A stretch of 64,000 nucleotides of DNA from Bdellovibrionota bacterium (GTDB taxonomy: Bacteria > Bdellovibrionota_C > UBA2361 > JAFLCA01): assembly GCA_044347745.1 (NCBI GenBank), contig JBIKUD010000004.1:2132-66131 (forward strand), written 5' to 3'. This document shows positions 13,071-55,432 of this stretch, in pieces. Below the pieces are notes generated by a model. The model was not told the origin of the DNA. It searched no databases and saw nothing but the letters and a program-made list of their open reading frames with translations. Numbering within the stretch: position 1 is the first letter of the stretch; every line of letters starts with the position of its first letter. The position numbers and the translations under genes were made by a program.

Positions 13071-13075
13071 TTGAA

Positions 13076-26275: not shown

Positions 26276-27862
26276 ATGCAAGTTGAAAAGCAAGAAATTG
26301 AACAGATCTCTATAATTGAGGGGCAATTTTCCGCCTCTGAAATAAGCCCAATCGCAAAAGCGCCGCCAATTCAGCAAAAGATCCTCCAGTTCGTTATCTT
26401 CTCTGTCCTGATTATGAGCCCCTTCGCCTTTGGTGCAGTACACGAAACTGTGTATTTGCCGCTTTGTGCACTCATCTTTTTTGGGCTTTGTGCGCTAATT
26501 ATCACAGGGCGCGGCGCTGTACTGAGCCTCCAAGACTACCCGGCAAGCACCGTAAGCCTTGGAACACTCGGCGCGTTTCTCTGCTACTGCGCTTTTCAGA
26601 GTCTCTTCCTCTCAGTTACCAGCGCCTCCCATCCAATCCAGGGGCTGTCATCCCAGCTGCTCGATGCAAGTGGCACCACCCGGGGTCTTCTCGTTCTTGC
26701 AGCTTCAATCACGCTTTGTTTCCTCGTCTCTACGCTATTTCAGGCGCAATCGAGCCTAGTGAGCTTTTTCTTAAAACTAATCAAATGGACTTCTTTCGGA
26801 GTTGCTTTGGTTGGTCTTAGTCACTGGTATTATGACAACGGTAAATTGTTTTGGTATTTTGAGCCTCAACATGTTTTTGTGAGTGAGCGCGCCCGGTGGC
26901 CATTCGTTAATGCAAACCATTTGGGCACATTTTTACTACCGGCTTTTTTTCTATTTCTCTCTGCGCTGTACTCGCAATTACAAGAAATTAGCAATTCTGC
27001 GGCAAAACGGGGCCGAATTAAAATTGGCCCCGCACTCTCTCAAATAGCTAGCAGCTCCAAAGGACAGACTCGCCTCGTGAGAGTCTTCGTGAATGGTGCA
27101 GCACTACTTACTATCACAATTACTATTATAGCCACCCTCTCTCGAGGGACCTGGGCAGGCCTGGCTGTTGGCATCGCCTTTTGGTATCTGGGAGCTCTTC
27201 ACTCTCCTAAGCCAGAGAAGGAGGCTGCTCTCAGACAGTCTCCTTCGCGCTCAGGTCGGCACAAGCGCAAAAGCCGCGGAGATGATTTCCAGTCTGTACT
27301 GTCAGCATTACGCCGCCTGAATCGCCCTCTCGTTGGGGCCTTTCTTGCGCTGCTTTTAGTATTTTTCCTGAATGAACGAGGCCGTGAATTGCTGATTAAC
27401 CGCTTGGACTTTGGGCTGATGCATTCAAAAGATGATATTCGTTGGCAAATGTATCAGGACAGCATGCCGCTATTTACCGATCATCCGCTTTTTGGAGTTG
27501 GGTACCGCTCGTGGGCAGAAAATTACCCCAAAGTCATGGATGAAAAACTTGCTGGCACGAATCCAGTTTACCTTCACTCCGATCCACTGCAAATTTTAAT
27601 CGAAACGGGTCTTATCGGTATTACGCCGCTGGTCCTTTTATCATTTTACCTTTTATTGCGAGCCCATCGCTGCGCACGTAAACTTCTTCAGACAACCAAT
27701 TATTTAGCCGGAGCCAGGATATTAGGATTAAGTTCTGGGCTCTTGGCGGCGCTTATTGGCTCCTGCTTCGACTTTCCGTTCCGCATGGGCGCAATATCGT
27801 TCTATTTTGCTGCCCTCTTAGGAACCCTTGCGTTTTACCTAGACAAACAACAGTCGACATAA
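26276..27862 (+). CDS. O-antigen ligase family (Wzy_C domain) polytopic membrane protein (WaaL / Wzy / PglL-type not distinguishable)
   Basis: ~12 TM helices, large periplasmic loop and Wzy_C-like region (RGTWAGLAVGIAFWYL...); basic cytoplasmic loop. Confidence 0.65.
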   Translation: MQVEKQEIEQISIIEGQFSASEISPIAKAPPIQQKILQFVIFSVLIMSPFAFGAVHETVYLPLCALIFFGLCALIITGRGAVLSLQDYPASTVSLGTLGAFLCYCAFQSLFLSVTSASHPIQGLSSQLLDASGTTRGLLVLAASITLCFLVSTLFQAQSSLVSFFLKLIKWTSFGVALVGLSHWYYDNGKLFWYFEPQHVFVSERARWPFVNANHLGTFLLPAFFLFLSALYSQLQEISNSAAKRGRIKIGPALSQIASSSKGQTRLVRVFVNGAALLTITITIIATLSRGTWAGLAVGIAFWYLGALHSPKPEKEAALRQSPSRSGRHKRKSRGDDFQSVLSALRRLNRPLVGAFLALLLVFFLNERGRELLINRLDFGLMHSKDDIRWQMYQDSMPLFTDHPLFGVGYRSWAENYPKVMDEKLAGTNPVYLHSDPLQILIETGLIGITPLVLLSFYLLLRAHRCARKLLQTTNYLAGARILGLSSGLLAALIGSCFDFPFRMGAISFYFAALLGTLAFYLDKQQST

Positions 27863-28104
27863 TTTACATAAATCTACGAGACCTGCACCTAATCGGCCTC
27901 TTTCATCATCGTTTCTAATGGACCTGAAGTATCTGGGAAAACTCGGCCTTTAGGTGATTGGGTATCTATCCGATTTTTCCCCTGAGGTGCTTCTCACAAG
28001 AGGAAAACTGAAGTCTGGTGCTTTTACTTGCGGAAGCTTCCAGCTACAATTCAAGAGCTTCCTTGTAACAAAGCACCGTGTATCGACTGCCAGGATATTT
28101 GGAT

Positions 28105-28584
28105 ATGAAGATGAGAGCTTTTGTAAAACCAGTTCTAATTGCCTCTTCTCTGCTTGCGGCTTGCTCGTCAGCCTTTGCTGAAGAACTAACCATTCAAGAC
28201 ACGAGCGGTTTTACGCGCTCGGCTGCGGAAATTGATGGCAGTACGCAAGTTGATTTTGCATTGGTAAATGGAGCTGGAGCCGCGGCTGATGGCATCGCTG
28301 TTACCCTTACAAATGCCACCACGGGAGAAGTGCTCACCGCTACATCAATTAATGGGATAGCAAGTTTTCAAGGAGTTACCGCAGGAGTGTGGACCGTAGC
28401 AACAACATCAGCTGGTATCACATTCACCTCAGTTTCTGTTGTTGGCGCTGTTGCAATGGGTGGAGCAACACTCACATCCACTCTCATCGGCGGAGCAGCG
28501 GTGGTAGGCGGCGGCACTGCCGCAGCGATTGCAATAACTGACTCAAACAATGACGATAACGACGAGCTCTCCCCCGCAGATTAA
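28105..28584 (+). CDS. Hypothetical lipoprotein, Ala/Gly/Thr-rich with acidic tail
   Basis: MKMRAFVKPVLIASSLLAAC lipobox; low-complexity beta-rich body; DSNNDDNDE tail. Confidence 0.45.
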   Translation: MKMRAFVKPVLIASSLLAACSSAFAEELTIQDTSGFTRSAAEIDGSTQVDFALVNGAGAAADGIAVTLTNATTGEVLTATSINGIASFQGVTAGVWTVATTSAGITFTSVSVVGAVAMGGATLTSTLIGGAAVVGGGTAAAIAITDSNNDDNDELSPAD

Positions 28585-28660: not shown

Positions 28661-29815
28661 ATGGAAGTTAGACCCTATCAGCAGTGCACCGCCTGCGTCA
28701 TGGATACCTCAGATTGTGACATCAGCTTCGATGCCTGCGGAGTCTGCAATCACCATCTCGAATATTTACAAAAATCTCGCTATGCCTGCTCCCCAGAAGA
28801 CAGGACTCGTAAACTCGAGGCCGCTGCCGCACGTATTCGTGAAAGCAGAGGTGCCAAGCAGTATGACTGTGTACTCGGTTTAAGTGGTGGGCTTGACAGC
28901 TCCTATTTGGCTCTACTTGCCCATAGATTAGGGCTTCGCCCCCTCGCTATCCATCTCGACAATGGTTGGAATTCAGAGTTGGCTGTCGACAACATTCAGA
29001 AAATTGTTCAAAAACTCAAATTAGATTTAAAAACGGTAGTCCTTGACTGGGAGACTTTTCGAGAGCTGCAACTTGCTTTCCTTAAAGCATCGGTTGCTAA
29101 TGTTGAAGTACCCACGGATCACGCAATTTTTGCATCGTTGTATCGTAGTGCGGCTGCCGAGGGACTTCAGTTCGTCCTGAGCGGCAACAACATTGCCACT
29201 GAGTCAATCCTCCCGCCTTCCTGGGGTTACAATTTTATGGATTTGCGCCACATTAAATCCATCCACCACCGCTTCGCCAAGCGGCCTCTTGGCGACTACC
29301 CCACACTCTCATTGCCCCGTTATTTGTACTACCGCTACCTAAAGCGAATTCAGAAAATACCGCTGCTTAATTATGTAGACTTTAATAAAAAAATTGCTAT
29401 CCAAGAACTACAGTCAGAGTTTGGATGGCGCGACTACGGATGTAAACATGGAGAATCGAGGTTCACCAGATTTTTCCAAGGCTATATTCTGCCGAAAAAG
29501 TTTGGCTTCGATAAACGACGTGCACACTACTCTTCGCTTATTGTTTCGGGTCAGATGACCAGGGGCGAAGCGTTAGAGCTTTTAAAATACCCCCCGCTTG
29601 CTGAAACAGAACTGAACATCGAAAGGCAATATGTACTAAAAAAACTCGAGCTTTCTGAGCAAGAATTTACTGAAATAATGAAACAAGCTCCCAAACGCGC
29701 CGAAGAATACCCATCGAATGCCGGGCTTTTAAAAATTTTCGCACAACTTAAGCGGGAAAAACTTCAGAAAAATCTTGGATCGTATGTCCCTCAAATCGAT
29801 CAAGCTTCCCTTTAG
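28661..29815 (+). CDS. N-acetyl sugar amidotransferase, WbuX/WbpG/PseA family (PP-loop ATPase), paralogue 1
   Basis: N-terminal 4-Cys cluster (CTAC...CGVCNHH), PP-loop LGLSGGLDSSY, ~62% aa identity to the ORF at 48340-49488. Confidence 0.8.
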   Translation: MEVRPYQQCTACVMDTSDCDISFDACGVCNHHLEYLQKSRYACSPEDRTRKLEAAAARIRESRGAKQYDCVLGLSGGLDSSYLALLAHRLGLRPLAIHLDNGWNSELAVDNIQKIVQKLKLDLKTVVLDWETFRELQLAFLKASVANVEVPTDHAIFASLYRSAAAEGLQFVLSGNNIATESILPPSWGYNFMDLRHIKSIHHRFAKRPLGDYPTLSLPRYLYYRYLKRIQKIPLLNYVDFNKKIAIQELQSEFGWRDYGCKHGESRFTRFFQGYILPKKFGFDKRRAHYSSLIVSGQMTRGEALELLKYPPLAETELNIERQYVLKKLELSEQEFTEIMKQAPKRAEEYPSNAGLLKIFAQLKREKLQKNLGSYVPQIDQASL

Positions 29816-32800
29816 AGAGGAACCGCCTCAGGTTTTTCCAAGTCTTTGGGGCTTGGTGGCTGCTATTGTTCTGTTAATTTGGTTTGTGAGTCCCAGCTTC
29901 TGGACTGCCATTAATAACGAACGCCTCATTTTCAGTTTTGATTCAGATGAGGCGACCCATGTTCGCTTGCTCCGGGACGCACTCATCAATCAAAGCCTTA
30001 ACTTTAACTTTCATGGATACGGGCATCTCTTTTTTAATGTTGCCTACGTAATTGCGCGGGGAACAGAACTTTTGTTGGGTCCTGTTGCAGACCAAACCCT
30101 TATTCAAATCCTGCGAGCCGTGTCTTTAAGCGGCGGAATTTTTTGTCTTCTGGCCGTTTTTTTTCTCGCGCGTCGTTTTTTTGGGGCCTGGCAGGCAGGT
30201 CTTGCTCCGCTTTTTTTGGTGATCTTCTGTGCTGAATTTCGGGCATATTCAGGCATTTCGCATCCCGACACCCTGCAATTAGCACTCACAGTGCTGACTC
30301 TATTTTGGTGCCTGAGTGCGCTCGATAGAAAAAATTTGTTTTTTACACTTGTAACCGCAACTATCTTCGCAGGTCTTACTTTTGTTACAAAATACTCAGG
30401 CCTGTTTTTGCTACCAATTATCTTTCTGTGCGCCTGGAGTCGTCGCGGAGAGCTCCCGACATGGAGGTTTATAGTTCCGGGAACAAGGCTCGTTTTGGCA
30501 GTTTTGGGACTTTGCGGTGTTGTCGTTTCGGTTACCCTTGGCTGGCACCTTTCTGCTGAAACTATTCTTAATTTTTTTAAGCCTGGAGATGCGTTAACTC
30601 CCAACGAACAACACATATTTAATTTGCTCCACCTTGGACTAAAAGTTGTCATAGTTCCTGGACTTGCCTTTGCTGGCGCCAGTCTATGGAACCCCCAAGG
30701 ACGAGCCCCAGCCGCTGCAGTTTACCGATTTATGGGGATAGCCATTCTTCTCAGCGCCATCTTTATACTTACTATTCCTCTGTTTTCTCCCTATCTTTTA
30801 GTTCATGGAAGATTATTAAAAGGCATGTTGGCTGAAAGCCTGCATGTCTCTTTTGGGCATGGCTTTAAGGTTCACAGCTCGGCCTTCGAATGGTTCACCA
30901 TTTTATATTCTCCTTTCGGCATAGGCTCGCTGAGTAGCTTACTTTTATTGTTCTCTTTAATGGGCGAGCAATTTTGGAAAAAACGCCCGCTGCCTGGCTT
31001 CAGTCCCCAACAGATCTTGTGGATCTGGATACTCGGATATTTTTCCTACTTATTTTTCAAAGTGAACTACCGAGAAGCAAGATATTTGCTCCCTCTGGTA
31101 CCCGCCTGCTTTCTGCTGGCTAGCGACCTGCTTGCAAAGATCCTCAATCAGGGGGGACTTCGAAGAAGCTTTTGTGCGCTCGGCATCTTTGTGATTCTCC
31201 TCAGTCAAATTCCTCAACTTAAAGCAGAGAGACAGCGACTAGCGAACAGAGAGGCTAATTCAGTAGCACTTACATTTGCCCTTAAAAATCTTTCTGGGGT
31301 TCCAAAGGAGTCGCGCATAGGTTTTGACGCTTTTGTCTACGTGCCCCCGGAGTTTCAGAAGGCGTATTTTGAATGGCGCTGGTCAGAAGCTCGTATGAAG
31401 GAGCTACAAATCGAGTACTTCATTTTAAACCAAGACGTAGCCGCTCAATATAAAGATCCATCGCGTGCAGTTGATTTTTATTGGGGAGAGGCGCGATTTA
31501 TGGAAGTGCATCACTTCTATAAGAGGCTAGAATCGGGCGCTCTAGGGTTTCAGGAGATAAGCCGCAGTAAAAATCTAATTCTGTATCAGCGCACTGCCAT
31601 GTCTGAAGGAACTCCTCAGCCAAAAAATTCTTCGATACCAGAGGCGTCAACCTTAGACAATTCGGCACTCGACACGCGCCTTTCGCAGCAAATAGAGCGA
31701 ATTTTATCGAGTCGCGATTTTAGTTCACCTGAATCGCTGTGTGATGCTCAGTATGTGCTTATGCTTCCCGCACTTGCAGCTTTTTCTCTTAATCTACCTG
31801 AAAGTAAACAGGTTTTTTGGTTTTACCTCAAGCGAGCTCTTAGCCAAACTCGAACTCTCGAGCAAATCCGCCTTGCTCATGTGAAACGGAGTTACCGAGT
31901 TGACCCATTTTTACTCGATGTTACCCAAAGTGGCCCAGACCAAAGAAGGATTTTTCCATTTGTTCAAAATAGAATTATGTTCCGAGTGCCGCACACTAAA
32001 ACCGGCATTCCTGTTGCAGAAGTAACTGAACAGCCCCTATGCCAACTTCAGTTTTCTTATCTTTTGTCGTTTGTGATGCGACTGACCAGCGCCGAGTCTA
32101 AAACCACACCAGACTCAATACAATTTCTTAATGAAGCATATTCATTTCTTCTAAATGACCTCGTTATTCCATATTGGACTAGTGTTGCTGCCTGGCACTG
32201 GCAAGGTTTTTTTCCAAATATGCGCGAGGCTGTAATAGCGCGCCTCGACTTTATTCATCATAAAAATTTAATAAGCCCTACGTATTATCGTGCCTTTTAT
32301 GATATGGATTTTTTTACGATGGCAATTGCTGCTGATTTGCTTGCAGCAAAAAAAATTTTTGCTCTTTCGAAAGAGCAAGAGACGCAACTCTACGATATTC
32401 AATCCCTTACGCGACGCATGTTTGAAGCCAGGCTTGAGCCGGGTCTTGGATTTCTCTTTCAAAAAGGTATTTGGACTGAGCACCAAGAGTATCAATATGC
32501 GCTTTGCGAGATAGGTCAATCGTTACCAGATACGCCTTGTCCCGACCCACAGCAGGCACCCGACTCAAATCATGCCGAGCGACTTCCCTGGTGGCTACTT
32601 AGTTTTGAATCCTCATTCGAACCCGATTCGGAAGGGGCAAAATATTATCAACATCTTCAAAAACGCCTAGCACACCAATTGGCAGAATCAGTGCTTGACT
32701 GGTCAGCTCAGTTCCCTCGGCTCACCAATTTTATGGACGGAAAAAATGGTTGGTATCGGGTACGCTACAATGGAAGAAATTGGGGCTATGGTCCATTTGC

Positions 32801-33053
32801 ACTCTCTCACGCGGCAAAATGGTTTTCATGGTCCCCGCTAGGGAAATTTGACAATCGAATTACTCAATTTCATGACAAACTTTGTAACCTGATACATACA
32901 AAAGACCGAGCTTCAATTGCTTTTAGAACTGCCTACTACGGCAATCCCGTACAACCTAAACTTTATGGCCTTGGCACAGAAGACGATATCGGGACGAACC
33001 CCCTATACCCCCTTTATTGCGATCTTTGGACGCGCCTGACTTTTTTGCGTTGA
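29775..33053 (+). CDS. Large membrane glycosyltransferase-like protein: N-terminal GT-C fold domain (ArnT/PMT-like) fused to ~590-aa C-terminal domain of unknown function
   Basis: ~13 predicted TM helices in first ~500 aa with acidic loop-1 motif FDSDEATH after TM1; remainder hydrophilic with no motif I recognise. Confidence 0.65.
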   Translation: MDRMSLKSIKLPFREEPPQVFPSLWGLVAAIVLLIWFVSPSFWTAINNERLIFSFDSDEATHVRLLRDALINQSLNFNFHGYGHLFFNVAYVIARGTELLLGPVADQTLIQILRAVSLSGGIFCLLAVFFLARRFFGAWQAGLAPLFLVIFCAEFRAYSGISHPDTLQLALTVLTLFWCLSALDRKNLFFTLVTATIFAGLTFVTKYSGLFLLPIIFLCAWSRRGELPTWRFIVPGTRLVLAVLGLCGVVVSVTLGWHLSAETILNFFKPGDALTPNEQHIFNLLHLGLKVVIVPGLAFAGASLWNPQGRAPAAAVYRFMGIAILLSAIFILTIPLFSPYLLVHGRLLKGMLAESLHVSFGHGFKVHSSAFEWFTILYSPFGIGSLSSLLLLFSLMGEQFWKKRPLPGFSPQQILWIWILGYFSYLFFKVNYREARYLLPLVPACFLLASDLLAKILNQGGLRRSFCALGIFVILLSQIPQLKAERQRLANREANSVALTFALKNLSGVPKESRIGFDAFVYVPPEFQKAYFEWRWSEARMKELQIEYFILNQDVAAQYKDPSRAVDFYWGEARFMEVHHFYKRLESGALGFQEISRSKNLILYQRTAMSEGTPQPKNSSIPEASTLDNSALDTRLSQQIERILSSRDFSSPESLCDAQYVLMLPALAAFSLNLPESKQVFWFYLKRALSQTRTLEQIRLAHVKRSYRVDPFLLDVTQSGPDQRRIFPFVQNRIMFRVPHTKTGIPVAEVTEQPLCQLQFSYLLSFVMRLTSAESKTTPDSIQFLNEAYSFLLNDLVIPYWTSVAAWHWQGFFPNMREAVIARLDFIHHKNLISPTYYRAFYDMDFFTMAIAADLLAAKKIFALSKEQETQLYDIQSLTRRMFEARLEPGLGFLFQKGIWTEHQEYQYALCEIGQSLPDTPCPDPQQAPDSNHAERLPWWLLSFESSFEPDSEGAKYYQHLQKRLAHQLAESVLDWSAQFPRLTNFMDGKNGWYRVRYNGRNWGYGPFALSHAAKWFSWSPLGKFDNRITQFHDKLCNLIHTKDRASIAFRTAYYGNPVQPKLYGLGTEDDIGTNPLYPLYCDLWTRLTFLR

Positions 33054-33328
33054 ATTTGAGAACTTGGGGGAACACAAGCTTCGCTTAATGTTCCCAGCAG
33101 GCGCAGTGTTTTAGGTGCCTTACCTTAGGAGCTAAGCCCCTCTCCTCCCTTCATAACTACTTGGAGTTCCTTAGCGCTGGCATGGTTAGGTAACAGAGCC
33201 TTAAGCTCAGCACAATTTGATTGGCATTTAATTTGCTCCTTCATACCAGCTGGTGGTTCCTCAATTAAAAAGGCGGCGATTCAACGCGCCACTAGAGGAA
33301 CGGTGCAGGTTTGTGGTTTGAGGTGGTT

Positions 33329-35542
33329 ATGTCGTGGCGTATTCTGTTGCGCAGTGCAATTTTTTTAATTGTATGTGTATTTTCGAGTAGTCCAGCGTGG
33401 GCCATATATACACGAATGCGTTTTACCGGCCCGTTTCACATTTCGAGCTGCCCCCCTTCGGGCCCCTCGCAGGTGGTCACAACGAACATACGGTATGACC
33501 TTGATTTTCGTCCTCTCCAAAACGTTGGTGCCATCGATCCGGTAGCAACTATCCTGCTCTACACCCAAAATCCACACCCGAGCTGCGCAGATGATCCGTT
33601 GGGAGCCAATTGTTTATCTTCATTCCCTCTGGGACAGCGCGCATTTTTGCCAAATCCACGTGAAATTCCAATCTCTATTACGAGCGCCATGGGGGGCCAA
33701 ACCTTCCACCTCCTTGCCGTGGGCTTTTCTATGGCATCGGGATCATTACAGGTTACGCACACCCGCGTTACTCCATTCCGATTTCTTGAATGTACGAGCA
33801 CACCAGCACCACTCGCTGTTCCCGGAGCAGGGTTTAGCTCAGGTCCGCCCGCTACCAGCGTGGTTGCTGGAACTCCCGCATTCTTACAAAACCAAACTAC
33901 CGTGGCTCACTGGGCTCTTGAAATTCAGCGTGACCGCCTGAGCGAAGCCCGCGAAATCGGCGTCATGACCGACAACGCCAGTGGCATTCAACGGGTAGAT
34001 TTTTCGGTCAATGGTGGTCCGATAGTTTCGGTAACGGAACGTCGATACGGCAAACGCGACGCGGCTCCGGGATATTTTATTACCGTCAATCCAGCTCAGT
34101 TTACTCCTGGCTCCCTTATTGAAATAAGAGCGGTAGTGTACCCCGTGTTCGGAAAAACTGCGGTACTGGCTGGACCAGTCACCACTCTTTCATCGGGATC
34201 AACCCCACCGACTTCAAATACGGGCTTACATAGTTTATTTTTGTACGCCGACCCAAATAATGCGCTGCCGAGGGCGACAGTTTATCTATCCCCAGGTGGC
34301 AATGACAACAGCGGCACAGGGTCGATTAGTGCTCCTTTTCTTACCTTTGCTCGGGCCGTAAATTCATTACGCACAACTCTTGGCAACAAACTAAGTGGTG
34401 GAACCATTGCTCTCTTGCCTGGTGACTATGTGCTTGGCTCTGGTCTGCCCAATTGGTGGACTCAAAGCGAATATCCAGACGGTTATCTAACTGTTGAATC
34501 GGCACCTGGTGTTCCTTCCGATCAAGTTCGCTTTGTAAATGTGCAGTCCAGCTGGATGGCGCGCTTTCTGAAAGTGCGTAACCTTACTATCTTGCCCCCT
34601 TTTAACGTTTCTATTTTGCGCGACGGCGATGGTGAACGAAGGGCACACCTCTACGTAGAAAATGTGGATGTGTATAGCCCGAGCCTTACCAGTGGGCACT
34701 TTAATTACGGCGGCAACGAGTTCGGGTTCAAAGCCGTGAAGCGTTCCTATACCGTGGGTGGTGACCGGGGCGTTGATTCCGCGTCATGGATTGCAAATTT
34801 TATGACCTATTACGGCACAGGGATCGCCTTTAACGACTCAATTCTTGTCTTTTCCTCGCTCGCCGAAAATTATGACCAGTATCGTCGTCATCCAGCGAAT
34901 CATGGAGACCTATTCCACATTCATGGAAGGGAGAAAAATATTCTTATCCAATGGCTTCTTCGCGGCGTGGATTTGTTCCGAATCCAAGGTCTATTCTTGT
35001 CAGCGGCCAAAGACGGGGTAGCAATTATCGAAAGCGTCAGCGATGTTGCTACTCGCGAAAAAGAAGTTGGCGCTCCAGGCAATGCTGCCCCTATCGGAGG
35101 ACAGCAGAACTTGATTATACGCAGCTCTGAATTTTTTGGTCAGGCAAACGTATTTAGTAATCCTGCAAACCAGCCGGGCAGCGTCTTTTTAGCAGACGGT
35201 GTGACATTCCCCATGAATCCTTGCAACACTTTTAATGAAGATTGCAATCCTTCTACGGGAACTTCAAACAACTCAAGCGGAGTGGTCTACTTAGGAAATG
35301 CCGCAGCATTAACAATGGTAAAATCGTCAGAGCCCGCTAAAACAATTGGGAAAGTCAACAAGGCAAAAATAGGCAAGCCCGCCCAAATTTCGCAAAAATC
35401 TCTTCGAATATTACTAAAATCTTTTCCTAAAGAGATTGCGCGCTTAATTCAAAAACAGACTGCGCTTTCAAAGCCAGCAGTCAAACGCAAGTTAGCTTTA
35501 CGTAGGTTGAACAATAAGGCAAAAAGCGTGGTTATTAGTTAG
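33329..35542 (+). CDS. Secreted protein, probably right-handed beta-helix (pectin-lyase fold)-like, with Lys-rich C-terminal tail
   Basis: Signal MSWRILLRSAIFLIVCVFSSSPAWA after GAGGTGG RBS; Gly/Asn/Ser/Thr-rich periodic body; ~70-aa K/R-rich C-terminus. Confidence 0.5.
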   Translation: MSWRILLRSAIFLIVCVFSSSPAWAIYTRMRFTGPFHISSCPPSGPSQVVTTNIRYDLDFRPLQNVGAIDPVATILLYTQNPHPSCADDPLGANCLSSFPLGQRAFLPNPREIPISITSAMGGQTFHLLAVGFSMASGSLQVTHTRVTPFRFLECTSTPAPLAVPGAGFSSGPPATSVVAGTPAFLQNQTTVAHWALEIQRDRLSEAREIGVMTDNASGIQRVDFSVNGGPIVSVTERRYGKRDAAPGYFITVNPAQFTPGSLIEIRAVVYPVFGKTAVLAGPVTTLSSGSTPPTSNTGLHSLFLYADPNNALPRATVYLSPGGNDNSGTGSISAPFLTFARAVNSLRTTLGNKLSGGTIALLPGDYVLGSGLPNWWTQSEYPDGYLTVESAPGVPSDQVRFVNVQSSWMARFLKVRNLTILPPFNVSILRDGDGERRAHLYVENVDVYSPSLTSGHFNYGGNEFGFKAVKRSYTVGGDRGVDSASWIANFMTYYGTGIAFNDSILVFSSLAENYDQYRRHPANHGDLFHIHGREKNILIQWLLRGVDLFRIQGLFLSAAKDGVAIIESVSDVATREKEVGAPGNAAPIGGQQNLIIRSSEFFGQANVFSNPANQPGSVFLADGVTFPMNPCNTFNEDCNPSTGTSNNSSGVVYLGNAAALTMVKSSEPAKTIGKVNKAKIGKPAQISQKSLRILLKSFPKEIARLIQKQTALSKPAVKRKLALRRLNNKAKSVVIS

Positions 35543-35597: not shown

Positions 35598-36683
35598 CTA
35601 AATCCGGGCTAACTCTTTTCCGAGTTTGTTTCTACGACCCCGGAATCGCAAAGAAACTTCCGCACCCGTTTCCATGGACTCATACATGGCGTTAATGAGG
35701 GTGAGCGATTTTAAGCCCTCCATGCCGTCCACAGCCCCGCCTTTGCCCTTTCGAATAGAATCAACAACTCCCTGCAAATAGCGTTGATGACCAAAGCCAT
35801 AAACATTCGGCGGGTTCTCTTTGTATTTTTGAAGCACCTCTGCGTCTTCCGGTAGCGGCTTTGCAAAGTTCCAGGTCCTCATTTCGTTTACCGCAAACCC
35901 AGCAATTTCTACACTGCCTCCCTCTCCCAAAATGGAAATAGAACCTTCAAGATCTTTAGGGCGAGTGGCTGTAGTGGCTTCAACCACACCCAGCGCTCCG
36001 TTTGTAAACTTCAGAACTGCTACCGCCGTATCATCGGCCTCAATCTGGACTAACCGTGTAGTTGTATAACTGAATACCGATTCTACATCGCCCATTAAAT
36101 AGGTGAGCAGGTCTATGTGATGACTTGCTTGATTTGAAATCACTCCCCCATCAAGCGACCAGGTACCACGCCAGGAATCCATGTCATAGTAACTTTGCTC
36201 GCGGCACCATCTGACACGAACCGTGCCCATTACCAATTTACCGAAGCGCCCCGCATCCATTGCGGCTTTTAATTGCTGCACGGGTAAGTTGTAGCGATTT
36301 TGTTTAACTACGAAAAGGCGCACTCCAGCCTGATCACAGGCTCGAATCATAGATTCTGCATCCTGGATGGTAAGCGCCATGGGTTTTTCAACGATGATAT
36401 GTTTGCCATAAGGAGCCAGCTCCAAAGTCTCCCGCGCATGCAAGCCGCTTGGCGTCAAAATACTAAAAGCAGAAACTTCAGGATGTTTCGCGGCCATTTC
36501 ATGATAGTTTGTGTACCAGGGAACGCCATATTTTTCCCCAGTGTTGCGTGCACGCTCCACTTGGATGTCACACACGGCAGCAAGCTCAGCGCCTTTAATA
36601 TGCTGAATAGCATCCAGATGTTTACCCGAAATTCTACCGCAACCAACAAGAGCAAATAAAACAGGAGATTCGTTAGCCGTCAT
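35598..36683 (-). CDS. Gfo/Idh/MocA family NAD-dependent sugar dehydrogenase (WbpB-like)
   Basis: N-terminal Rossmann LVGCGRISGKHLDAI and Gfo/Idh/MocA C-terminal domain; polysaccharide locus context. Confidence 0.8.
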   Translation of the reverse strand: MTANESPVLFALVGCGRISGKHLDAIQHIKGAELAAVCDIQVERARNTGEKYGVPWYTNYHEMAAKHPEVSAFSILTPSGLHARETLELAPYGKHIIVEKPMALTIQDAESMIRACDQAGVRLFVVKQNRYNLPVQQLKAAMDAGRFGKLVMGTVRVRWCREQSYYDMDSWRGTWSLDGGVISNQASHHIDLLTYLMGDVESVFSYTTTRLVQIEADDTAVAVLKFTNGALGVVEATTATRPKDLEGSISILGEGGSVEIAGFAVNEMRTWNFAKPLPEDAEVLQKYKENPPNVYGFGHQRYLQGVVDSIRKGKGGAVDGMEGLKSLTLINAMYESMETGAEVSLRFRGRRNKLGKELARI

Positions 36684-36707: not shown

Positions 36708-37658
36708 TTATAATTGGTAGTTTGTCTCATTCTGAATAAAACTATTTAATTGGTTGCTGATTTCGTTAGTTCCCTGTACCTCCGGCGCACTCAACACTTC
36801 TGCTGCCTGGGCTTTGTTTTTCACTCCTACCAAGGCGACACCTCCCGCAAGGGAATCAAGCACCCAGCGCACACTAAAGGCTGCCACGCTACAGCTCCGT
36901 GCATCACAGATACGCCGGAGTTGCTGAACTTTCCATATATTTTTTTCTGCTTCCGGTCCATGGAACTTTGTATACTGAGGGTTCCGGCGTCTATCTCCTT
37001 CGGGAAACGCTGTTGGTTCTGCATAGCGACCTCCTAAAAGCCCCTGGGCCAGTACTCCATAAGCAAGTGGGGTAACTTGCCGCTCGCTCCAGGCTCTTAA
37101 GTATTCGAGCTGGCGCTGTTCGAGAAGGCTATATTCTAATTGGGCGCTAAGTACCCATTCAGGCAAAACCTCTGTGGCTAGGTCTTGGACATGCAGATTG
37201 GAAAGTCCAAAGTAGTTTATGATTCCTTTGGCACGAAGGTTCTCAGCACACTCAAAAATAGCTGTGAGCGGAGTTTGTCTATCCCAATAATGAAGATAAT
37301 ACAGATCAATAACCTCTCGCTGCAAACGTTTGCGGCTGGCTAAGGCGGCGGCTTCTAGCCAAGATGGGGAACTATCAAAAAAAGACTTGCCGCTGGTGTC
37401 TACGCGCACCCCCCCTTTCGTTGCCAACACGACATCAGGGTTTTTGCCAAAAAGCGCCCCTAAACGCTCTTCTGCTTGACCAAGACCATAGACATCAGCG
37501 CAATCAATAAAATTTACGCCTTGCTCAACTGCATATTGCAGCGCCGCTGAAGCATCTGTTATCGATACGTCTCCGTAGCCATGCACTCCAAGTGGTCCAG
37601 CACCGAGACAGATACGGGACACCAAAGGGCCACGCTTCCCTAACCGAATTTTTTCCAT
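36708..37658 (-). CDS. Aldo/keto reductase family oxidoreductase
   Basis: AKR signatures (GVNFIDCADVYG, (beta/alpha)8 barrel length 316 aa). Confidence 0.8.
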   Translation of the reverse strand: MEKIRLGKRGPLVSRICLGAGPLGVHGYGDVSITDASAALQYAVEQGVNFIDCADVYGLGQAEERLGALFGKNPDVVLATKGGVRVDTSGKSFFDSSPSWLEAAALASRKRLQREVIDLYYLHYWDRQTPLTAIFECAENLRAKGIINYFGLSNLHVQDLATEVLPEWVLSAQLEYSLLEQRQLEYLRAWSERQVTPLAYGVLAQGLLGGRYAEPTAFPEGDRRRNPQYTKFHGPEAEKNIWKVQQLRRICDARSCSVAAFSVRWVLDSLAGGVALVGVKNKAQAAEVLSAPEVQGTNEISNQLNSFIQNETNYQL

Positions 37659-38296
37659 ACACCAAGCTTGGAAGTTATTGTGTTTCCGAATCCCAACATT
37701 TTAGCGCAAAGCACCCAGGCTGTTTTAGCAATCAAATAGAGATCAAGCGCAAATGAGCGTTCACGGACATAACGCAGCCTCAATTCCATTTGCCGCGGCA
37801 GCACCACCTCGTCATACACCTTGCCCGCATCAGTTGAGCCAACGGCAGCTTGAAGGTCTGCAAATTCAACTGAACTAAAATCTGTAATGCCTGGCCTCAC
37901 TGACAAAATAAGCTTTTCGTCTCCGACATAGCGAGCCGTATACTCCGGCAATTGAGGCCGAGGGCCAACAAAACTCATTTCTCCAACAAGGACATTAAAA
38001 AGCTGGGGCAATTCATCCAATTTTGAGGCTCTTAAAAACTTACCAAGTTTCGTAATTCGAGGGTCATTGAGTGCTGTCGTACCACTGCCTTTATCCGCGC
38101 CGACAACCATGGTGCGAAATTTCCAAATTTTAAACGGGACTCCAAATAGACCGCTGCGCACGGCTCTGTAAAATACTGGCCCTTTATGTTCCATACTAAT
38201 TAGGGCAGCAATAACGAGCATCAACGGTGAAAACACTACAAGGAGCAGCGCAGCAAGGAGCAGGTCAAAGAGGCGTTTAAGAAAGTTATAACTCAC
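37640..38296 (-). CDS. PglC/WbaP-C-terminal-type undecaprenyl-phosphate sugar phosphotransferase (initiating enzyme)
   Basis: Single N-terminal TM, bacterial sugar transferase motifs (KFRTM, PRITKLGKFLRASKLDELPQL, VGPRP); 218 aa. Confidence 0.8.
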   Translation of the reverse strand: MSYNFLKRLFDLLLAALLLVVFSPLMLVIAALISMEHKGPVFYRAVRSGLFGVPFKIWKFRTMVVGADKGSGTTALNDPRITKLGKFLRASKLDELPQLFNVLVGEMSFVGPRPQLPEYTARYVGDEKLILSVRPGITDFSSVEFADLQAAVGSTDAGKVYDEVVLPRQMELRLRYVRERSFALDLYLIAKTAWVLCAKMLGFGNTITSKLGVWKKFG

Positions 38297-40894: not shown

Positions 40895-42019
40895 TTAGCG
40901 CGTAGCAGTCGATTGCTGGGCTTCCAAAGCTTGCCTTAAACAGGTAGCCACCCACTGCTGCTGCTCGGCGCTTAGTTCAGCATACATAGGAATTGACATA
41001 ATTCGGTGCATGCCCCGTGCTGCATTGGGGTGGGCGTTTCCGTCTAGCCCCAAATACGCATACGCCTGGGTAAGAGGGAGCGAGATAGGATAATGAATCC
41101 CTGTATGGACTCCACGCTGTAAAAGGAAATCTTGCACACGTTCACGGTTTTCTACCTGCACAACATACAAATGGAAAACATGACTGGCATAGTCGGGAAC
41201 CACTGGAATCTGCGCTACTATTCCCTTAAGCAGATCATGATAGACACCTGCGTGCTCTTGCCGCAGTTCCGTCCATTTTTTTAAATACGGCAACTTGGCG
41301 CTCAATATGGCTGCCTGCAAACCATCCAGGCGGCTGTTTCGACCCTCTAATCCGTGATCAAACTTACCGAGTCTCCCGTGGTCACACACCATGCGGCTGT
41401 GTTTCGCAAGATTCTCGTCATTGGTTACAATTGCTCCGGCATCTCCGTACGCGCCTAGGTTTTTTCCCGGAAAAAAACTAAATGTGGCCATATGCCCCAT
41501 GGTGCCAGCAACTCGGCCTTTATAGGTTGCTCCATGTGCCTGGGCACAATCTTCAATCACTTTAAGTTCAAATTTTTTCGCCAATGTTAAAATAGGGTCC
41601 ATGTCAGCAGTGAGTCCGTAGAGGTGCACGGGTATAATTGCCCTGGTTCTCTCTGTAATAGCCTCTTCCAGCTTTGCGACATCCATGGTGTAGGTAATCG
41701 GGTCGTTATCAACAAACACCACCTTCGCACCCGCTGTAGTCACAGATTCCGAAGTAGATATCCAGGTGTTCGCGGGCACTATAACTTCATCCCCAGGTCC
41801 TATCCCCAAAACCCGCAAAGCAACTTCAATTGCATCTGTGCCGTTGGCGCAAGGCACACAGTGGGCAACTCCCAGATAATCGGCAAACTCACGCTCAAAT
41901 TTTTCGACGTACTTACCTTTTATAAAAGCTGTTTCGCTAATTACGCGGCCCATGGCCTCATCAATTTCTTTTTTGATTGAATTGTATTGAGCCTTTAGGT
42001 CTACGAATGGAACTTCCAT
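40895..42019 (-). CDS. DegT/DnrJ/EryC1/StrS-family sugar aminotransferase (WbpE/PglE-like)
   Basis: Starts MEVPFVDLKAQY..., PLP fold-type I sugar aminotransferase signature throughout. Confidence 0.85.
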   Translation of the reverse strand: MEVPFVDLKAQYNSIKKEIDEAMGRVISETAFIKGKYVEKFEREFADYLGVAHCVPCANGTDAIEVALRVLGIGPGDEVIVPANTWISTSESVTTAGAKVVFVDNDPITYTMDVAKLEEAITERTRAIIPVHLYGLTADMDPILTLAKKFELKVIEDCAQAHGATYKGRVAGTMGHMATFSFFPGKNLGAYGDAGAIVTNDENLAKHSRMVCDHGRLGKFDHGLEGRNSRLDGLQAAILSAKLPYLKKWTELRQEHAGVYHDLLKGIVAQIPVVPDYASHVFHLYVVQVENRERVQDFLLQRGVHTGIHYPISLPLTQAYAYLGLDGNAHPNAARGMHRIMSIPMYAELSAEQQQWVATCLRQALEAQQSTATR

Positions 42020-42241
42020 TTTTTTTCCTCTATTTCCACAAATTCTGGTGACAAATTGCAAGTTTTTGTCTTTTTGTTAGGGACAAGTCGAAGTATAACG
42101 ATGTTAACTATTACGCGCTATGACAAATTCAACTCAAAGCGCATATTTGTTTAAACCCGGGCTGTTTCATTTTTTCAAATGTGGAGCATGCCGGTAGTGT
42201 TTGAGCCCCGCATATAAGGGCCACATTTAAAGGGGCATAAG

Positions 42242-42718
42242 GTGGCAGCACCAATTCTATTAAAAACTGGCATCGTTAACTGTTCTTTTGGTGAGCAGGT
42301 TAAAGTTGTTGAGCCTGTAAACCTTTATGGCTGCCAGATAGGAGATGGCTGTTTTGTTGGCCCATTTGTAGAAATTCAAGCTGGGGTCGAAATAGGCCCC
42401 CGCTGCCGTATCCAGTCTCACGCTTTTATTTGCGAACTTGTCAAAATTGGCGCCGATTGTTTTATCTCTCACGGTGCCATGTTTATAAACGACCGCTTTG
42501 AAACCGGTGGGCCAGCGCGAGGCCGTAAAGAGCTTTGGAAGCATACTTCCATCGGCAATAATGTAAGTATCGGAACAAACGCCACCATTCTTCCAGTACG
42601 CATCTGCGATAATGTGGTGATTGGTGCCGGCGCGGTGGTAACAAAAGACATTAGCAAACCGGGAATATATGTAGGTAATCCCGCACGTTTACTTCGAGCC
42701 CTCCCCTCTCCAAAGTAG
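42242..42718 (+). CDS. Hexapeptide-repeat (LbH) sugar N-acetyltransferase (WbpD/PglD-like)
   Basis: Repeating [LIV]G..xx hexapeptides along the 158 aa. Confidence 0.7.
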   Translation: MAAPILLKTGIVNCSFGEQVKVVEPVNLYGCQIGDGCFVGPFVEIQAGVEIGPRCRIQSHAFICELVKIGADCFISHGAMFINDRFETGGPARGRKELWKHTSIGNNVSIGTNATILPVRICDNVVIGAGAVVTKDISKPGIYVGNPARLLRALPSPK

Positions 42719-42724
42719 TTTTTT

Positions 42725-43408
42725 ATGAGCACCTCATCGCTTTGCATAGTGCACTACGGGCTTGGAAACCCTCGCTCCATTCAGAATATGTACTCACGCT
42801 TAGGAGTAAAGGCCCTGGTGAGCGCAGAGCCGCAGGTTATTAGCCAAGCTACCCACCTTATTTTGCCTGGTGTTGGCGCCTTTGATCGTGGCATGCAAAA
42901 CCTAAAGGAGTTGAATTTAATTCCGGTACTTGAGGATTCTGTATTAAAGCGCAAGGTGCCTGTGCTTGGTATTTGCCTTGGACTTCAGCTTATGGGCCTC
43001 AGGAGCGAAGAAGGAAGAGAATCCGGCTTAGGTTGGTTCGATGCCGAATGTATTCGCTTTAGGCTCGCAGGAAGAACGGATCTGAAAGTGCCACTGATGG
43101 GCTGGCGTACAATCATTTCTAAACGAAAAGATGCACTACTGAGTCAATTAGGCCCAGATTCTCGCTTTTATTTTGTACATTCTTATCATTTGTCAGGCCT
43201 GCCTGAAGAGTCCTTAGTCGCTTCAGCAGAACATGGCTATGAATTTCCCGCTATTGTGCGCCAAGGTAATATCATGGGCGCTCAGTTTCATCCTGAAAAG
43301 AGCCATACATTTGGAATGCGCTTGCTTAAGAACTTCTATGAAAATACGGGCATGGATCAGGGCTACGGGCCCACTGGCGATAAAAAGTCGGGGGCTTCGA
43401 CTCTATGA
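42725..43408 (+). CDS. Glutamine amidotransferase, HisH-like (WbuY-like)
   Basis: Class I GATase triad context (GICLGLQLM, FHPE); 4-bp overlap with HisF-like gene. Confidence 0.8.
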   Translation: MSTSSLCIVHYGLGNPRSIQNMYSRLGVKALVSAEPQVISQATHLILPGVGAFDRGMQNLKELNLIPVLEDSVLKRKVPVLGICLGLQLMGLRSEEGRESGLGWFDAECIRFRLAGRTDLKVPLMGWRTIISKRKDALLSQLGPDSRFYFVHSYHLSGLPEESLVASAEHGYEFPAIVRQGNIMGAQFHPEKSHTFGMRLLKNFYENTGMDQGYGPTGDKKSGASTL

Positions 43409-44148
43409 TTCCTCCCCGCATTATCCCTACCTTACTTTTGGATAGCGGCAAGCTCGTTAAAACTACGCGTTTTAAGTCTCCCCGCTATATTGGAGATCCT
43501 ATAAATGCGGTTAGAATCTTTAACGAGAAAGAAGTTGACGAACTAATCGTCATCGACATTTCAGCGAGCCTGCAAAAACGGGAGCCTCCCCTAAAATTAA
43601 TTGGGGAACTGGCAAGTGAATGTTTTATGCCACTTTGTTATGGTGGAGGGATTCATACCCTCGGCCAAGCCCGAGCAATAATTGATAGCGGGGTTGAGAA
43701 AATCTGCTTCCAGAGCGGAGCCTTTCAGAATTTAAACCTCATTGAAGAGTGTGCCAAAAATTTTGGCTCCCAAGCTATAGTGATTTCTATCGACGTGAAC
43801 CGCGGTCTCTTTGGTGGCCTAAAGCTGCACTCTGCAACGGGACTGCACCCAAAATACTCTCCAGCTGAGTTTGCTCAAACGGCCGTAAATGCTGGCGCGG
43901 GAGAGATTTTACTCTGTGCGGTACACCGCGAAGGTACATTTGAAGGTTATGATTTGCCCCTCATTCGAGAAATAAGTTCCTGCGTCAGCGTTCCCGTAAT
44001 TGCCCTTGGCGGCGCAAGAGATTACCAAAACTTGCTCGATGCGATTGAGGCCGGCGCATCCGCTGCCGCGGCAGGCAGTTTGTTTGTCTATCATGGCCGA
44101 CATAAAGCGGTGCTTATCAATGTGCCCAAATCAGCGGTTAATGCTTAA
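43405..44148 (+). CDS. Imidazole-glycerol-phosphate-synthase cyclase subunit HisF-like (WbuZ-like)
   Basis: (beta/alpha)8 HisA/HisF family, 247 aa, coupled to HisH-like gene. Confidence 0.8.
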   Translation: MIPPRIIPTLLLDSGKLVKTTRFKSPRYIGDPINAVRIFNEKEVDELIVIDISASLQKREPPLKLIGELASECFMPLCYGGGIHTLGQARAIIDSGVEKICFQSGAFQNLNLIEECAKNFGSQAIVISIDVNRGLFGGLKLHSATGLHPKYSPAEFAQTAVNAGAGEILLCAVHREGTFEGYDLPLIREISSCVSVPVIALGGARDYQNLLDAIEAGASAAAAGSLFVYHGRHKAVLINVPKSAVNA

Positions 44149-45295: not shown

Positions 45296-46765
45296 CTAGG
45301 TTCCCACCGCGCTTAGTACACTTGACGCTTGCTTGGACCACTGCCCCCGGCCAAGCGAAGTCAATTTCATTCGGCGGCGATGCCAATGACGGGTAAGCTC
45401 GTGGGGCGTGCCAACAAATATCGTCGGATCGCTTAACTGCGATTGCAATAACGCTAAAAAACTATCGGTAAAACCAGCAAAAAGCCATTGGTTGCATCCC
45501 GTTTCCGTATGCCAATCAACCACGGCGCAGAGTCCCCTCTCCTGAATTAATTTAAGTACATGCATTGCTGCTTCGAGCGCAATTCCTTCATCGGAAAATC
45601 CTCTTAACTTTGCATCTGCTGTTGGCAAGACGTGTTTCTCGAGCAAACAGGTTGGAAACACATACATATCAAGCGGTTTTTCCCGTTCAAGGTCATATGG
45701 TCGGTACGGTAAGGCAGTGCCAGCCCGAAATCCTGGAATATCTCTCCAGGCAATCGACATGTCATAGCGAAAGCCAGCATTTACATGTTTTCTATGCGTT
45801 CGATGCGGTTTTTCCCAATCAAGAGCCCAGTAATGATGCCGCAAACCCCAAATGGGAGTTTCAAGTTTCTCCTCCAAAAACTTTTTGGCATGAATGAAAT
45901 AATCCAAAGATTTTTTAGCCTCGATACCTGCATGCAACCCAAACTCCCAGCCCTGCTGGCTCAAGGTTCTTAGCGGCTGCCAAAGCGCATCATCTGTTTT
46001 GGGATGAAAATAACTTTTACAATCATTCAGAGTTCTATGAGTGCCAAAAGCCGCTGTAGAGAGCAAAAAGCAAGACTTGGCAGCAAACTGATTCTCAAGG
46101 TCGGCCCAATTTTGGAAGCAAAAATAAGGATCCTGAATAATCGGGGCCCGGCGCGCTTTAAGACTTGCCCAGAGTAAATCTTTGTAAACCGGCAACCGGC
46201 GTCGAGCCCATTTCGCTACCAACGCACATAGTTCGTTCATAGACCCAAGTTGAAGGGCGTCGGTGTCATGTGTAACAACGAGGGCAGATTTTTTTCCTCC
46301 TGGCCAAAGCGTTTCGGTTTCGCCGAGGAGATTTTCGTACCTCGCTTTAAACGCCAAGGCACACTCATCAACCAGCGGACGGGCAGCAACCGCCTGCCTC
46401 CACTCAGGAAGCACAGAGGAATAGAATATTCCGCGATCATCACGGCAGTTCTCTCCAATTTCTTGCTCATCTAAGAAAGTGAGCAAGCGAAAAGTCAGGC
46501 CAATACAATCGAAGCCAGGCTCAAGGTAATTTTGGTAAGCTTGCCGAAGAGTTGCCGATAATTTTTTTTCGAAATACCATTCAGGCTCACAACGAATTAC
46601 TTCCTTCCCGCTCAGCGCAGAACAGTTGGAATTTGTGTAGACCCAATGAGCAGACTCGATAGTATCTTCTAATTGCAGGGCCACTCCCAGCCTGAGCGCA
46701 AATTCCTGCCACGCATATTCAACGCGCGGTCTTAGTTGTGAGGGAACATCAATAAAAAGCTTCAT
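45296..46765 (-). CDS. Hypothetical protein (possibly carbohydrate esterase/deacetylase-like)
   Basis: 489-aa ORF in the polysaccharide locus; motif VVTHDTDA and His-rich segments; no confident family. Confidence 0.45.
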   Translation of the reverse strand: MKLFIDVPSQLRPRVEYAWQEFALRLGVALQLEDTIESAHWVYTNSNCSALSGKEVIRCEPEWYFEKKLSATLRQAYQNYLEPGFDCIGLTFRLLTFLDEQEIGENCRDDRGIFYSSVLPEWRQAVAARPLVDECALAFKARYENLLGETETLWPGGKKSALVVTHDTDALQLGSMNELCALVAKWARRRLPVYKDLLWASLKARRAPIIQDPYFCFQNWADLENQFAAKSCFLLSTAAFGTHRTLNDCKSYFHPKTDDALWQPLRTLSQQGWEFGLHAGIEAKKSLDYFIHAKKFLEEKLETPIWGLRHHYWALDWEKPHRTHRKHVNAGFRYDMSIAWRDIPGFRAGTALPYRPYDLEREKPLDMYVFPTCLLEKHVLPTADAKLRGFSDEGIALEAAMHVLKLIQERGLCAVVDWHTETGCNQWLFAGFTDSFLALLQSQLSDPTIFVGTPHELTRHWHRRRMKLTSLGRGQWSKQASSVLSAVGT

Positions 46766-55431: not shown

Positions 55432-55432
55432 T

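Follow-up and report, generated by a model that had tools for sequence, protein, structure and literature searches.

Gene organization and integrity

The gene considered here lies at 29775..33053 (forward strand) in a 64,000-nucleotide (nt) stretch of DNA from a Bdellovibrionota bacterium (assembly GCA_044347745.1, contig JBIKUD010000004.1, positions 2,132 to 66,131), referred to below as the window. Its product joins a GT-C-type glycosyltransferase to a predicted (alpha/alpha)6 barrel of an unannotated protein family, and the gene is embedded in a polysaccharide locus. The original prediction, made from the sequence alone, had described an open reading frame (ORF) of 1092 residues, with a GT-C-like domain of 13 transmembrane (TM) helices followed by a ~590-residue domain without recognisable motifs. 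The features of the gene are listed here; pLDDT is the predicted local distance difference test score, and P0001-P0005 are standalone homologs.

29775..33053, forward: whole fusion ORF, 1092 residues from the TTG at 29775, 1089 residues from the ATG at 29784
29775..31247, forward: predicted GT-C TM core, residues 1-491, ~13 TM helices, Pfam PMT_2 on residues 115-231
29922..29960, forward: first periplasmic-loop motif RLIFSFDSDEATH, residues 50-62; R50, D58 and H62 invariant
31248..31592, forward: predicted C-terminal periplasmic alpha/beta domain belonging to the GT-C module itself, residues ~492-606, common to P0001-P0005
31593..31661, forward: low-complexity linker TAMSEGTPQPKNSSIPEASTLDN, residues 607-629, pLDDT below 50
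31662..33050, forward: C-terminal module, predicted (alpha/alpha)6 barrel, residues 630-1092, member of an unannotated, mostly secreted family
32562..32582, forward: family-invariant motif D930-S-N-H933-A-E-R936
32727..32759, forward: family-invariant motif N985-x3-G989-x-N-G-W-Y-R995

The ORF exists as predicted, with 1092 codons from the TTG and no internal stop; the ATG three codons in, at 29784, gives the 1089-residue form found in public annotations. The predicted overlap with the stop codon of the preceding gene (29815) amounts to 32 nt from the ATG or 41 nt from the TTG, and that gene does encode a WbuX-type enzyme (TIGR03573, E 4e-83). The concern that two genes had been merged by a sequencing or assembly error, e.g. 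a missed frameshift, has some basis, in that both modules occur as separate proteins elsewhere and stop codons part them in one related locus (L005, see below). Against it, the 1089-residue product is present, identical and as one 'hypothetical protein', on at least nine contigs from several metagenomes (NCBI, JGI/IMG, ENA and Logan gene calls, i.e. independent assemblies), the longest being of 358 kb. The start of a JGI contig (L003) falls within the gene, and the contig is open from base 1 through residues 599-1092 (99.6% identity), so that the module junction has been assembled independently; the window barrel, lacking a signal peptide of its own, would moreover need the fusion for export. 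Given the multiple identical assemblies and the read-through in L003, the artefact explanation, which we consider extremely improbable, is rejected, and the fusion ORF is a single real gene. The third-position GC content of the barrel part (31662-33050) is 0.37, compared with 0.44 for the GT-C part (29775-31592) and 0.46 for the WbuX gene, a weak hint that the modules may have different histories. Promoter and terminator scans around the gene gave background-level signals.

Searching 5.8 billion clusters with the whole protein retrieved five relatives only (P0001-P0005), all of 600-616 residues with PMT_2/PMT Pfam matches, which align with residues ~30-610. When residues 521-1092 were used as the query, a separate set was returned, its members (496-645 residues, including P0007-P0013) having no Pfam domain and aligning with residues ~640-1092 at 32-41% identity. 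Because the halves match different sets of standalone proteins, the protein comprises two modules. The proposed ~590-residue C-terminal domain is thus correct as to the presence of a large C-terminal part, but that part resolves into the periplasmic domain of the GT-C module, the linker and a barrel of 463 residues. The linker, residues 607-629, is probably disordered or flexible, as judged by the model, and sits where the standalone barrel homologs carry their signal peptide. Unlike those proteins, the window barrel does not carry a signal peptide itself, the position being taken by the linker from the GT-C module; on sequence comparison this appears to be the feature that sets it apart from its family.

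The GT-C module

Profile, topology, loop aspartate and predicted fold all indicate that residues 1-606 form a complete glycosyltransferase of the ArnT/PMT type. GT-C enzymes act on the extracytoplasmic face of the membrane with polyprenyl-phosphate-linked donors. The PMT_2 match (PF13231, residues 115-231) has an E-value of 7.1e-7 and scores 30 bits against a cutoff of 26.1. Hydropathy analysis gives ~13 hydrophobic segments between residues 20 and 484, with a first loop at residues 39-111 and the N-terminal positive residues placed inside. The acidic first-loop motif singled out in the original prediction, FDSDEATH, corresponds to residues 55-62 (DSDE being 56-59), and R50, D58 and H62 are invariant across the six members of the GT-C subfamily; D58 is a candidate for the catalytic acid. 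Further invariant positions are YGHL82-85, HPD163-165, K206/Y207 and E354/H357, and the ~115-residue periplasmic domain (residues ~492-606) is conserved in the standalone homologs of 600-616 residues.

The full-length AlphaFold (AF2) model, in which the GT-C module is well predicted, has a pLDDT of 74 and a predicted template-modelling score (pTM) of 0.56, at which the inter-domain geometry is unreliable. Foldseek searches with this model matched the GT-C module at a probability of 1.00 to AglB, ArnT, STT3, PglB, ALG9/ALG12, DPY19 and Pmt4 (E 4e-7 to 8e-4), in agreement with the predicted GT-C topology. The analogy drawn earlier with the mycobacterial Emb proteins fared less well, EmbC being a marginal match at E 0.23. 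The top matches are oligosaccharyltransferases; the WWDxG motif of these enzymes is absent, there being no WWD anywhere in the protein.

The barrel module

Modelled alone with nine homologs, the C-terminal module (residues 630-1092) is almost entirely helical (pLDDT 82, pTM 0.89) and is predicted to adopt an (alpha/alpha)6 barrel fold, the type found in glycoside hydrolases, lyases and epimerases. Neither the module nor its homologs had a match in Pfam or NCBIfam, and when PDB sequences were searched with the single protein or with profiles of nine and 65 sequences, designed helical repeats at non-significant E-values were all that came up. The description of this region as having no recognisable motifs therefore holds for Pfam, NCBIfam and PDB sequences, but not for its fold. 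Likewise, its assignment to no family is correct for curated libraries, yet a profile search of 1.84 billion representatives, with a profile built with the window sequence included (A1), identified a large unannotated family, with 930 clusters at E<=1e-3 and 410 at E<=1e-30. These clusters are counted at 50% identity, and the family comprises at least 930 of them. The representative of the window's own cluster, P0006, is a contig-truncated fragment identical to window residues 609-1092 (E 3e-205 against A1); the standalone proteins P0007-P0010 match the window barrel at phmmer E-values of 7e-100 to 1e-64.

Most members are of ~500 residues with one N-terminal hydrophobic, signal-like segment, and by hydropathy none of 31 longer members has a multi-TM region. 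Some long, distant members add Laminin_G_3 (ConA-like lectin), PG_binding_1, CarboxypepD_reg or sialidase-N domains, additions that look usual for secreted carbohydrate-active enzymes. Since the standalone homologs carry signal-peptide-like N termini, the window barrel is likely extracytoplasmic, which accords with the original prediction; with the N terminus inside, such a location fits an odd number (~13) of TM helices.

In an alignment of 140 members, D843, R886, D930-x-x-H933-x-x-R936, Q968, N985, G989-x-N-G-W-Y-R995 and P1007 are near-invariant, and D843, R886, D930, H933, R936 and R995 are 86-100% invariant even though the members are divergent. The window barrel retains every position that is at least 85% conserved. 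The conserved polar set, together with its retention in the window protein, argues that the site is functional and that the module is no decayed appendage, while not indicating a particular chemistry. The earlier suggestion of a carbohydrate-binding-type C-terminal domain is accordingly not borne out by what was found, i.e. an apparent (alpha/alpha)6 barrel that keeps all of the family-wide invariant polar residues. The C-terminal part is rich in Trp, Tyr and Phe as described (14.5% combined), and the peptide quoted in this respect (GRNWGYGPF...) is at about residues 999-1035.

The surrounding glycan locus

The genes around the fusion include WbuX, Wzx, initiating transferase and nucleotide-sugar genes, and the proposal that the fusion protein is part of the surrounding polysaccharide locus agrees well with this setting. 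The principal features of the locus (26276-52340) are as follows.

26276..27862, forward: Wzy_C-family polytopic protein (O-antigen ligase or polymerase type), upstream, by Pfam
28078..28584: small lipoprotein-like ORF
28661..29815, forward: WbuX-type N-acetyl sugar amidotransferase
33311..35542, forward: secreted protein of 743 residues without a family, next gene downstream; signal peptide, weak 47-residue PelN-like stretch, Big_7 hint
35598..36683, reverse: GFO/IDH/MocA dehydrogenase (WbpB-like), homologs of which co-occur with barrel genes elsewhere
37640..38296, reverse: small polyprenyl-phosphate phosphoglycosyl transferase (Bac_transf), the initiating enzyme
40895..42061, reverse: DegT-family sugar aminotransferase (WbpE-like), co-occurring with barrel genes elsewhere
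42242..44148, forward: hexapeptide acetyltransferase (WbpD-like), then HisH-like glutamine amidotransferase (GATase) and HisF-like cyclase
45296..46765, reverse: VimE-like soluble protein of 488 residues, sub-threshold match (E 1.4e-16)
46762..48216, reverse: Wzx-type flippase (Polysacc_synt_3)
48340..49488, forward: second WbuX paralog, 59% identical to the first
50418..52340, forward: WbpM/PglF-type UDP-sugar 4,6-dehydratase (Polysacc_synt_2)

A formyltransferase gene lies between the second WbuX gene and that for the dehydratase. The HisH-like and HisF-like proteins are presumably partners of the WbuX-type amidotransferases. VimE, to which the product of 45296..46765 is related below threshold, is the Porphyromonas UDP-2,3-diacetamido-2,3-dideoxy-glucuronate deacetylase; VimE-like relatives co-occur with barrel genes in L001, L028, L030, L045 and L053. 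The initiating transferase aside, the GT-C fusion is the only other candidate for a sugar-adding enzyme at the locus among the scanned ORFs of at least 150 residues.

The genes flanking the locus are ordinary chromosomal housekeeping genes, and the presence of a lipid A acyltransferase gene (55382..56344) implies a diderm host. An aldo-keto reductase, a TylF-like methyltransferase and a split transketolase, the N- and C-terminal halves of which are separate genes, are encoded at 36708-37658 and 38302-40881 on the reverse strand; these enzymes suggest an unusual modification, of a side-chain or higher-carbon-sugar kind. The secreted 743-residue protein is kept at the same position in L003, L018 and L019. 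The window has no rRNA gene, and Rfam matches it at one place only, a tRNA gene (59561-59635, forward) that shortly precedes a gene for a polyprenyl synthetase (59730-60734).

Barrel genes in other genomes

The neighbourhoods of ~40 barrel genes were compared (loci L001, L002, L006-L017 and L023-L053). The closer relatives of the window barrel (at least 28% identity over the full length) are consistently within Wzx-dependent glycan biosynthetic loci. Thus, P0013 is preceded by a fused WbpB-like/hexapeptide gene, a hexapeptide acetyltransferase, a DegT aminotransferase and two UDP-sugar 2-epimerases, and in Aneurinibacillus WbpB-, WbpE- and WbpA-like genes come before the barrel gene and Wzx after it. 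In metagenomic loci, tblastn searches with window proteins found WbpB-like (GFO/IDH/MocA), WbpE-like (DegT), WbpD-like (hexapeptide), WbpA-like, Wzx and VimE-like genes to recur, and in L046-L050 the gene right after the barrel gene is a WbuX gene. This gene set is also that of the window (WbpB-, WbpE- and WbpD-like, Wzx, WbuX and VimE-like). WbpA, B, E, D and I make UDP-2,3-diacetamido-2,3-dideoxy-mannuronic acid (PMC4031482). Members of the barrel family thus appear, from gene content, to be usually secreted alone and to belong regularly to Wzx/Wzy loci for 2,3-diamino, acetamidino and uronic sugars. By a genome scan, the family is present in Desulfobacterota, Bacillota, Bacteroidota and a Krumholzibacteriota metagenome-assembled genome.

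In Desulfobacterota, Bacillota and metagenomes, at least 14 loci have, next to the barrel gene, a member of one conserved protein family with 8-10 TM segments (A7; pairwise E 1e-31 to 1e-86), as follows.

L009:5210-6859; L013:9388-10872; L014:9223-10698; L016:2686-4041: examples of the 8-10-TM neighbour
L027-L029, L031, L032, L034, L037, L038, L041, L044: further loci with the 8-10-TM neighbour

This family has no Pfam model, and one member matches TIGR04370 ('oligosaccharide repeat unit polymerase') below threshold, at E 1.9e-5 over most of the profile. It is probably, on these grounds, an unclassified Wzy-type polymerase tied to Wbp-type sugars; comparison by hhalign with the window proteins was negative for a diverged GT-C enzyme and for a diverged Wzy_C protein. 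The usual 8-10-TM neighbour was not found in the window.

In L001 and L002 a protein of 371 residues without a family, conserved in both, is encoded by a gene that overlaps the start of the standalone barrel gene (L001:3220-4335, L002:1132-2247); it was tested as a WbuX or GT-C fragment and is neither.

Rarity of the fusion and standalone GT-C relatives

No other full-length match to the fusion was found in the 5.8 billion clusters, no GT-C gene adjoins the barrel gene at the other ~40 barrel loci, with the exception of L005, and neither the barrel family nor a GT-C/barrel fusion is described in the literature searched. The covalent combination of GT-C and barrel is thus not found elsewhere in the databases or literature searched.

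In L005, the closest GT-C homolog (P0001, 36% identity) and a barrel gene downstream of it (P0014, 43% identity) are 55 nt apart; as the DegT protein of this locus is 70% identical to that of the window, L005 is from a related organism. The two genes are in the same frame, with three in-frame stops between them (L005:5095-6221), and the barrel has no signal peptide and a frameshift near 5996. L005 is possibly a split or decaying fusion, or a product of poor assembly (it is a Logan contig); in either case its gene order indicates that the GT-C/barrel pairing is older than one species.

The other GT-C relatives have more varied neighbours. In a KSB1 bacterium (L020:5215-13296), P0005 sits directly after a secreted 902-residue Glyco_hydro_88 protein, of the same fold class as the barrel, and is also flanked by a 1084-residue FG-GAP/fn3 protein, all on one strand; in both neighbours Pfam weakly matches the C-terminal tail of type IX secretion (Por_Secre_tail). 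The GH88-domain protein was examined as a barrel relative by hhalign, with a negative result, so that L020 would be a second, sequence-unrelated pairing of the GT-C subfamily with an (alpha/alpha)6 barrel, and a looser parallel. The GT-C homologs in L004 and L022 have no barrel gene alongside. A GT4 gene and a gene for a protein of 461/462 residues without a known family (pairwise E 1e-87; L005:1836-3221 and L022:1803-3191, both reverse) adjoin the GT-C homologs in L005 and L022; this family is absent from the window. Beside P0004, two paralogs of 168 and 145 residues (E 1e-82) share a domain with an adjacent protein of 716 residues (L004:3050-3556, 11334-11771 and 11874-14024), and none of the three has a family assignment.

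Proposed function and alternatives

Taken together, the two modules and their context lead us to propose, with a probability of about 0.5, that the fusion protein is an inner-membrane two-module enzyme acting on the surface glycan of the surrounding Wzx-dependent locus, with the barrel binding this glycan and most likely cleaving or epimerizing it. The GT-C module would transfer a sugar from a polyprenyl-phosphate-linked donor, at the periplasmic face, to the locus glycan or to the final acceptor. The barrel would bind the same glycan after flipping and, most likely, cleave or epimerize it, much as AlgL, BcsZ or a polymer-level epimerase does as part of a synthesis machinery. Through the fusion, the signal peptide of the barrel would be exchanged for a flexible tether to the GT-C module, so that the two active sites would both stay at the membrane and share one nascent chain. 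In this scheme the periplasmic location, the donor, the acceptor and the barrel chemistry are all inferred, whereas the analysis itself establishes the single ORF, the limits of the modules, their two folds, the conserved candidate active-site residues of each, the size and gene neighbourhoods of the barrel family and the rarity of the fusion.

Several observations weigh against this proposal. The likeness of the barrel to enzymes is at the level of fold only (3-11% identity; Foldseek best E-value in the PDB 0.1), and (alpha/alpha)6 barrels may be non-catalytic. The relative placement of the two modules in the full-length model is, as noted, unreliable. Among the scanned window ORFs of at least 150 residues, three of which carry no family assignment, there is no GT2 polyprenyl-phosphate-sugar synthase and no Leloir (GT2/GT4) glycosyltransferase; because no donor synthase was matched, a donor of the ArnT type is unaccounted for within the 64 kb. 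The window is also without a WbpA-type 6-dehydrogenase, so a uronic acid substrate is not established at this locus. For some distant members of the barrel family the context is catabolic, as in Neobacillus, where the neighbours are a LacI regulator and ABC sugar permeases, and L005, with its in-frame stops and frameshift, may be a decayed copy.

Polymerase, branching-transferase and protein-glycosylating roles, all raised in the original prediction, are each conceivable for the fusion protein. The barrel might instead be a non-catalytic, Emb-like domain that binds the acceptor or guides the chain for a branching or decorating GT-C enzyme. GT-C enzymes with extra periplasmic sugar-binding domains are established (Emb, AftD, PMT-MIR), a flexible tether suits substrate capture by the barrel, and the barrel has no detectable sequence relation to characterized enzymes. 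We nevertheless regard a purely binding role as unlikely, since the barrel shares its fold with hydrolases, lyases and epimerases and not with known carbohydrate-binding modules, the 86-100% invariance of D843, R886, D930, H933, R936 and R995 across 140 members is more typical of catalysis than of binding alone, and most members are free secreted proteins with no transferase attached. A different division of labour would make the GT-C module itself the polymerase- or ligase-like enzyme, acting on undecaprenyl-diphosphate-linked units in place of the Wzy-type 8-10-TM neighbour, with the barrel as its periplasmic partner, e.g. in chain-length control, trimming or epimerization. That this neighbour, with its sub-threshold TIGR04370 match, stands beside the barrel in at least 14 loci and is absent from the window, where a GT-C module is fused to the barrel instead, is consistent with such a replacement, as are the lack of any matched Leloir glycosyltransferase or GT2 donor synthase at the locus and the rank of oligosaccharyltransferases, which use diphosphate-linked donors, as the top Foldseek matches. 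The module, however, matches PMT_2 (the ArnT/PMT type, with monophosphate donors) and not Wzy families, lacks WWDxG, and belongs to a subfamily that hhalign finds to be unrelated to the usual 8-10-TM partner. The Wzy_C-family protein encoded two genes upstream could itself be the polymerase or ligase, and elsewhere in the GT-C subfamily the neighbouring genes include no barrel (L004, L022) or one of the GH88 type that is unrelated in sequence (L020). On balance, a polymerase role for the GT-C module is thus doubtful.

That the barrel degrades foreign or recycled polysaccharide, its fusion to GT-C being incidental, is suggested by those distant members whose genes neighbour LacI regulators and sugar ABC permeases or whose products have lectin-like or peptidoglycan-binding-type (PG_binding_1) domains, as secreted degradative enzymes typically do. 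The loci of the closer subfamily (at least 28% identity), by contrast, are consistently biosynthetic, encoding Wzx, a polymerase-like protein and nucleotide-sugar enzymes, and the fusion gene overlaps the WbuX stop codon inside such a locus, so that a degradative role is very unlikely. A broader and more tentative possibility is that the barrel family as a whole is an unrecognized class of periplasmic glycan-modifying proteins for polymers of 2,3-diacylamido/acetamidino (uronic) sugars, of which the window protein would be the first GT-C-coupled, bifunctional 'modify-and-glycosylate' case; candidate activities for this class are those of a polymer-level C5-epimerase, or of a lyase/transglycosylase working with the Wzy polymerase.

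With at least 930 clusters in several phyla and a place in Wzx-dependent loci, the barrel family has no name, profile model or solved structure, and may be a more valuable lead than the fusion, which alone overturns no established view. If the proposal is correct, the family is probably an overlooked periplasmic step in the making of glycans with Wbp-pathway sugars. Such sugars are present in the lipopolysaccharides (LPS) of Pseudomonas and Bordetella, in Porphyromonas A-LPS and in Gram-positive cell-wall polymers (PMC4031482). The fusion would then be a 'Rosetta-stone' link indicating that a polytopic glycosyltransferase or polymerase is the working partner of the barrel at the membrane, and so would provide a testable handle on its role.

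Comparison with known systems

The GT-C module most resembles the ArnT/PMT enzymes (Pfam PMT_2; CAZy GT83/GT39), with which it has in common a PMT_2 match above threshold, ~13 TM helices, a first-loop Asp and a small C-terminal periplasmic domain. ArnT (5ezm/5f15) is matched by Foldseek at E 6e-6, and Pmt4 is also a structural match. The window protein differs from these enzymes in adding, after a linker, a 463-residue (alpha/alpha)6 barrel, and in having no arnC/gtrB-like donor synthase gene nearby; from the oligosaccharyltransferases STT3, PglB and AglB it differs in lacking WWDxG. The mycobacterial Emb/Aft proteins are similar in overall plan, in that a GT-C core is followed by a large periplasmic C-terminal region that engages polysaccharide. 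The C-terminal domains of Emb proteins are, however, of the beta-sandwich carbohydrate-binding type, whereas that of the window protein is predicted to be an all-helical barrel; there is no sequence similarity, in line with the marginal EmbC match (E 0.23).

Among barrel enzymes in polysaccharide synthesis, AlgL (alginate lyase, PL5) and BcsZ (GH8 cellulase) have no sequence relation to the window barrel, and the NNHSYW motif of AlgL is absent from it. The barrel family is, further, in Wzx/Wzy-type rather than synthase-type loci, and the window barrel is covalently fused to a transferase. The GH88/GH105 unsaturated uronyl hydrolases are 7-9% identical to the window barrel, which does not match Pfam Glyco_hydro_88 (PF07470). 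Dermatan-sulfate epimerase, heparinase II/III and PL35 enzymes, which are polymer-level uronate epimerases and lyases built on helical toroids, likewise lack a sequence relation to it, and no beta-sandwich follows the window barrel; the window locus also differs from those of uronate epimerases and lyases in that a uronic acid substrate is not established for it. In sequence terms, the barrel module defines a family of its own. GT-C enzymes with accessory periplasmic domains, and barrel enzymes in polysaccharide operons, are both known already; what sets the window protein apart, in the databases and literature searched, is their covalent combination.

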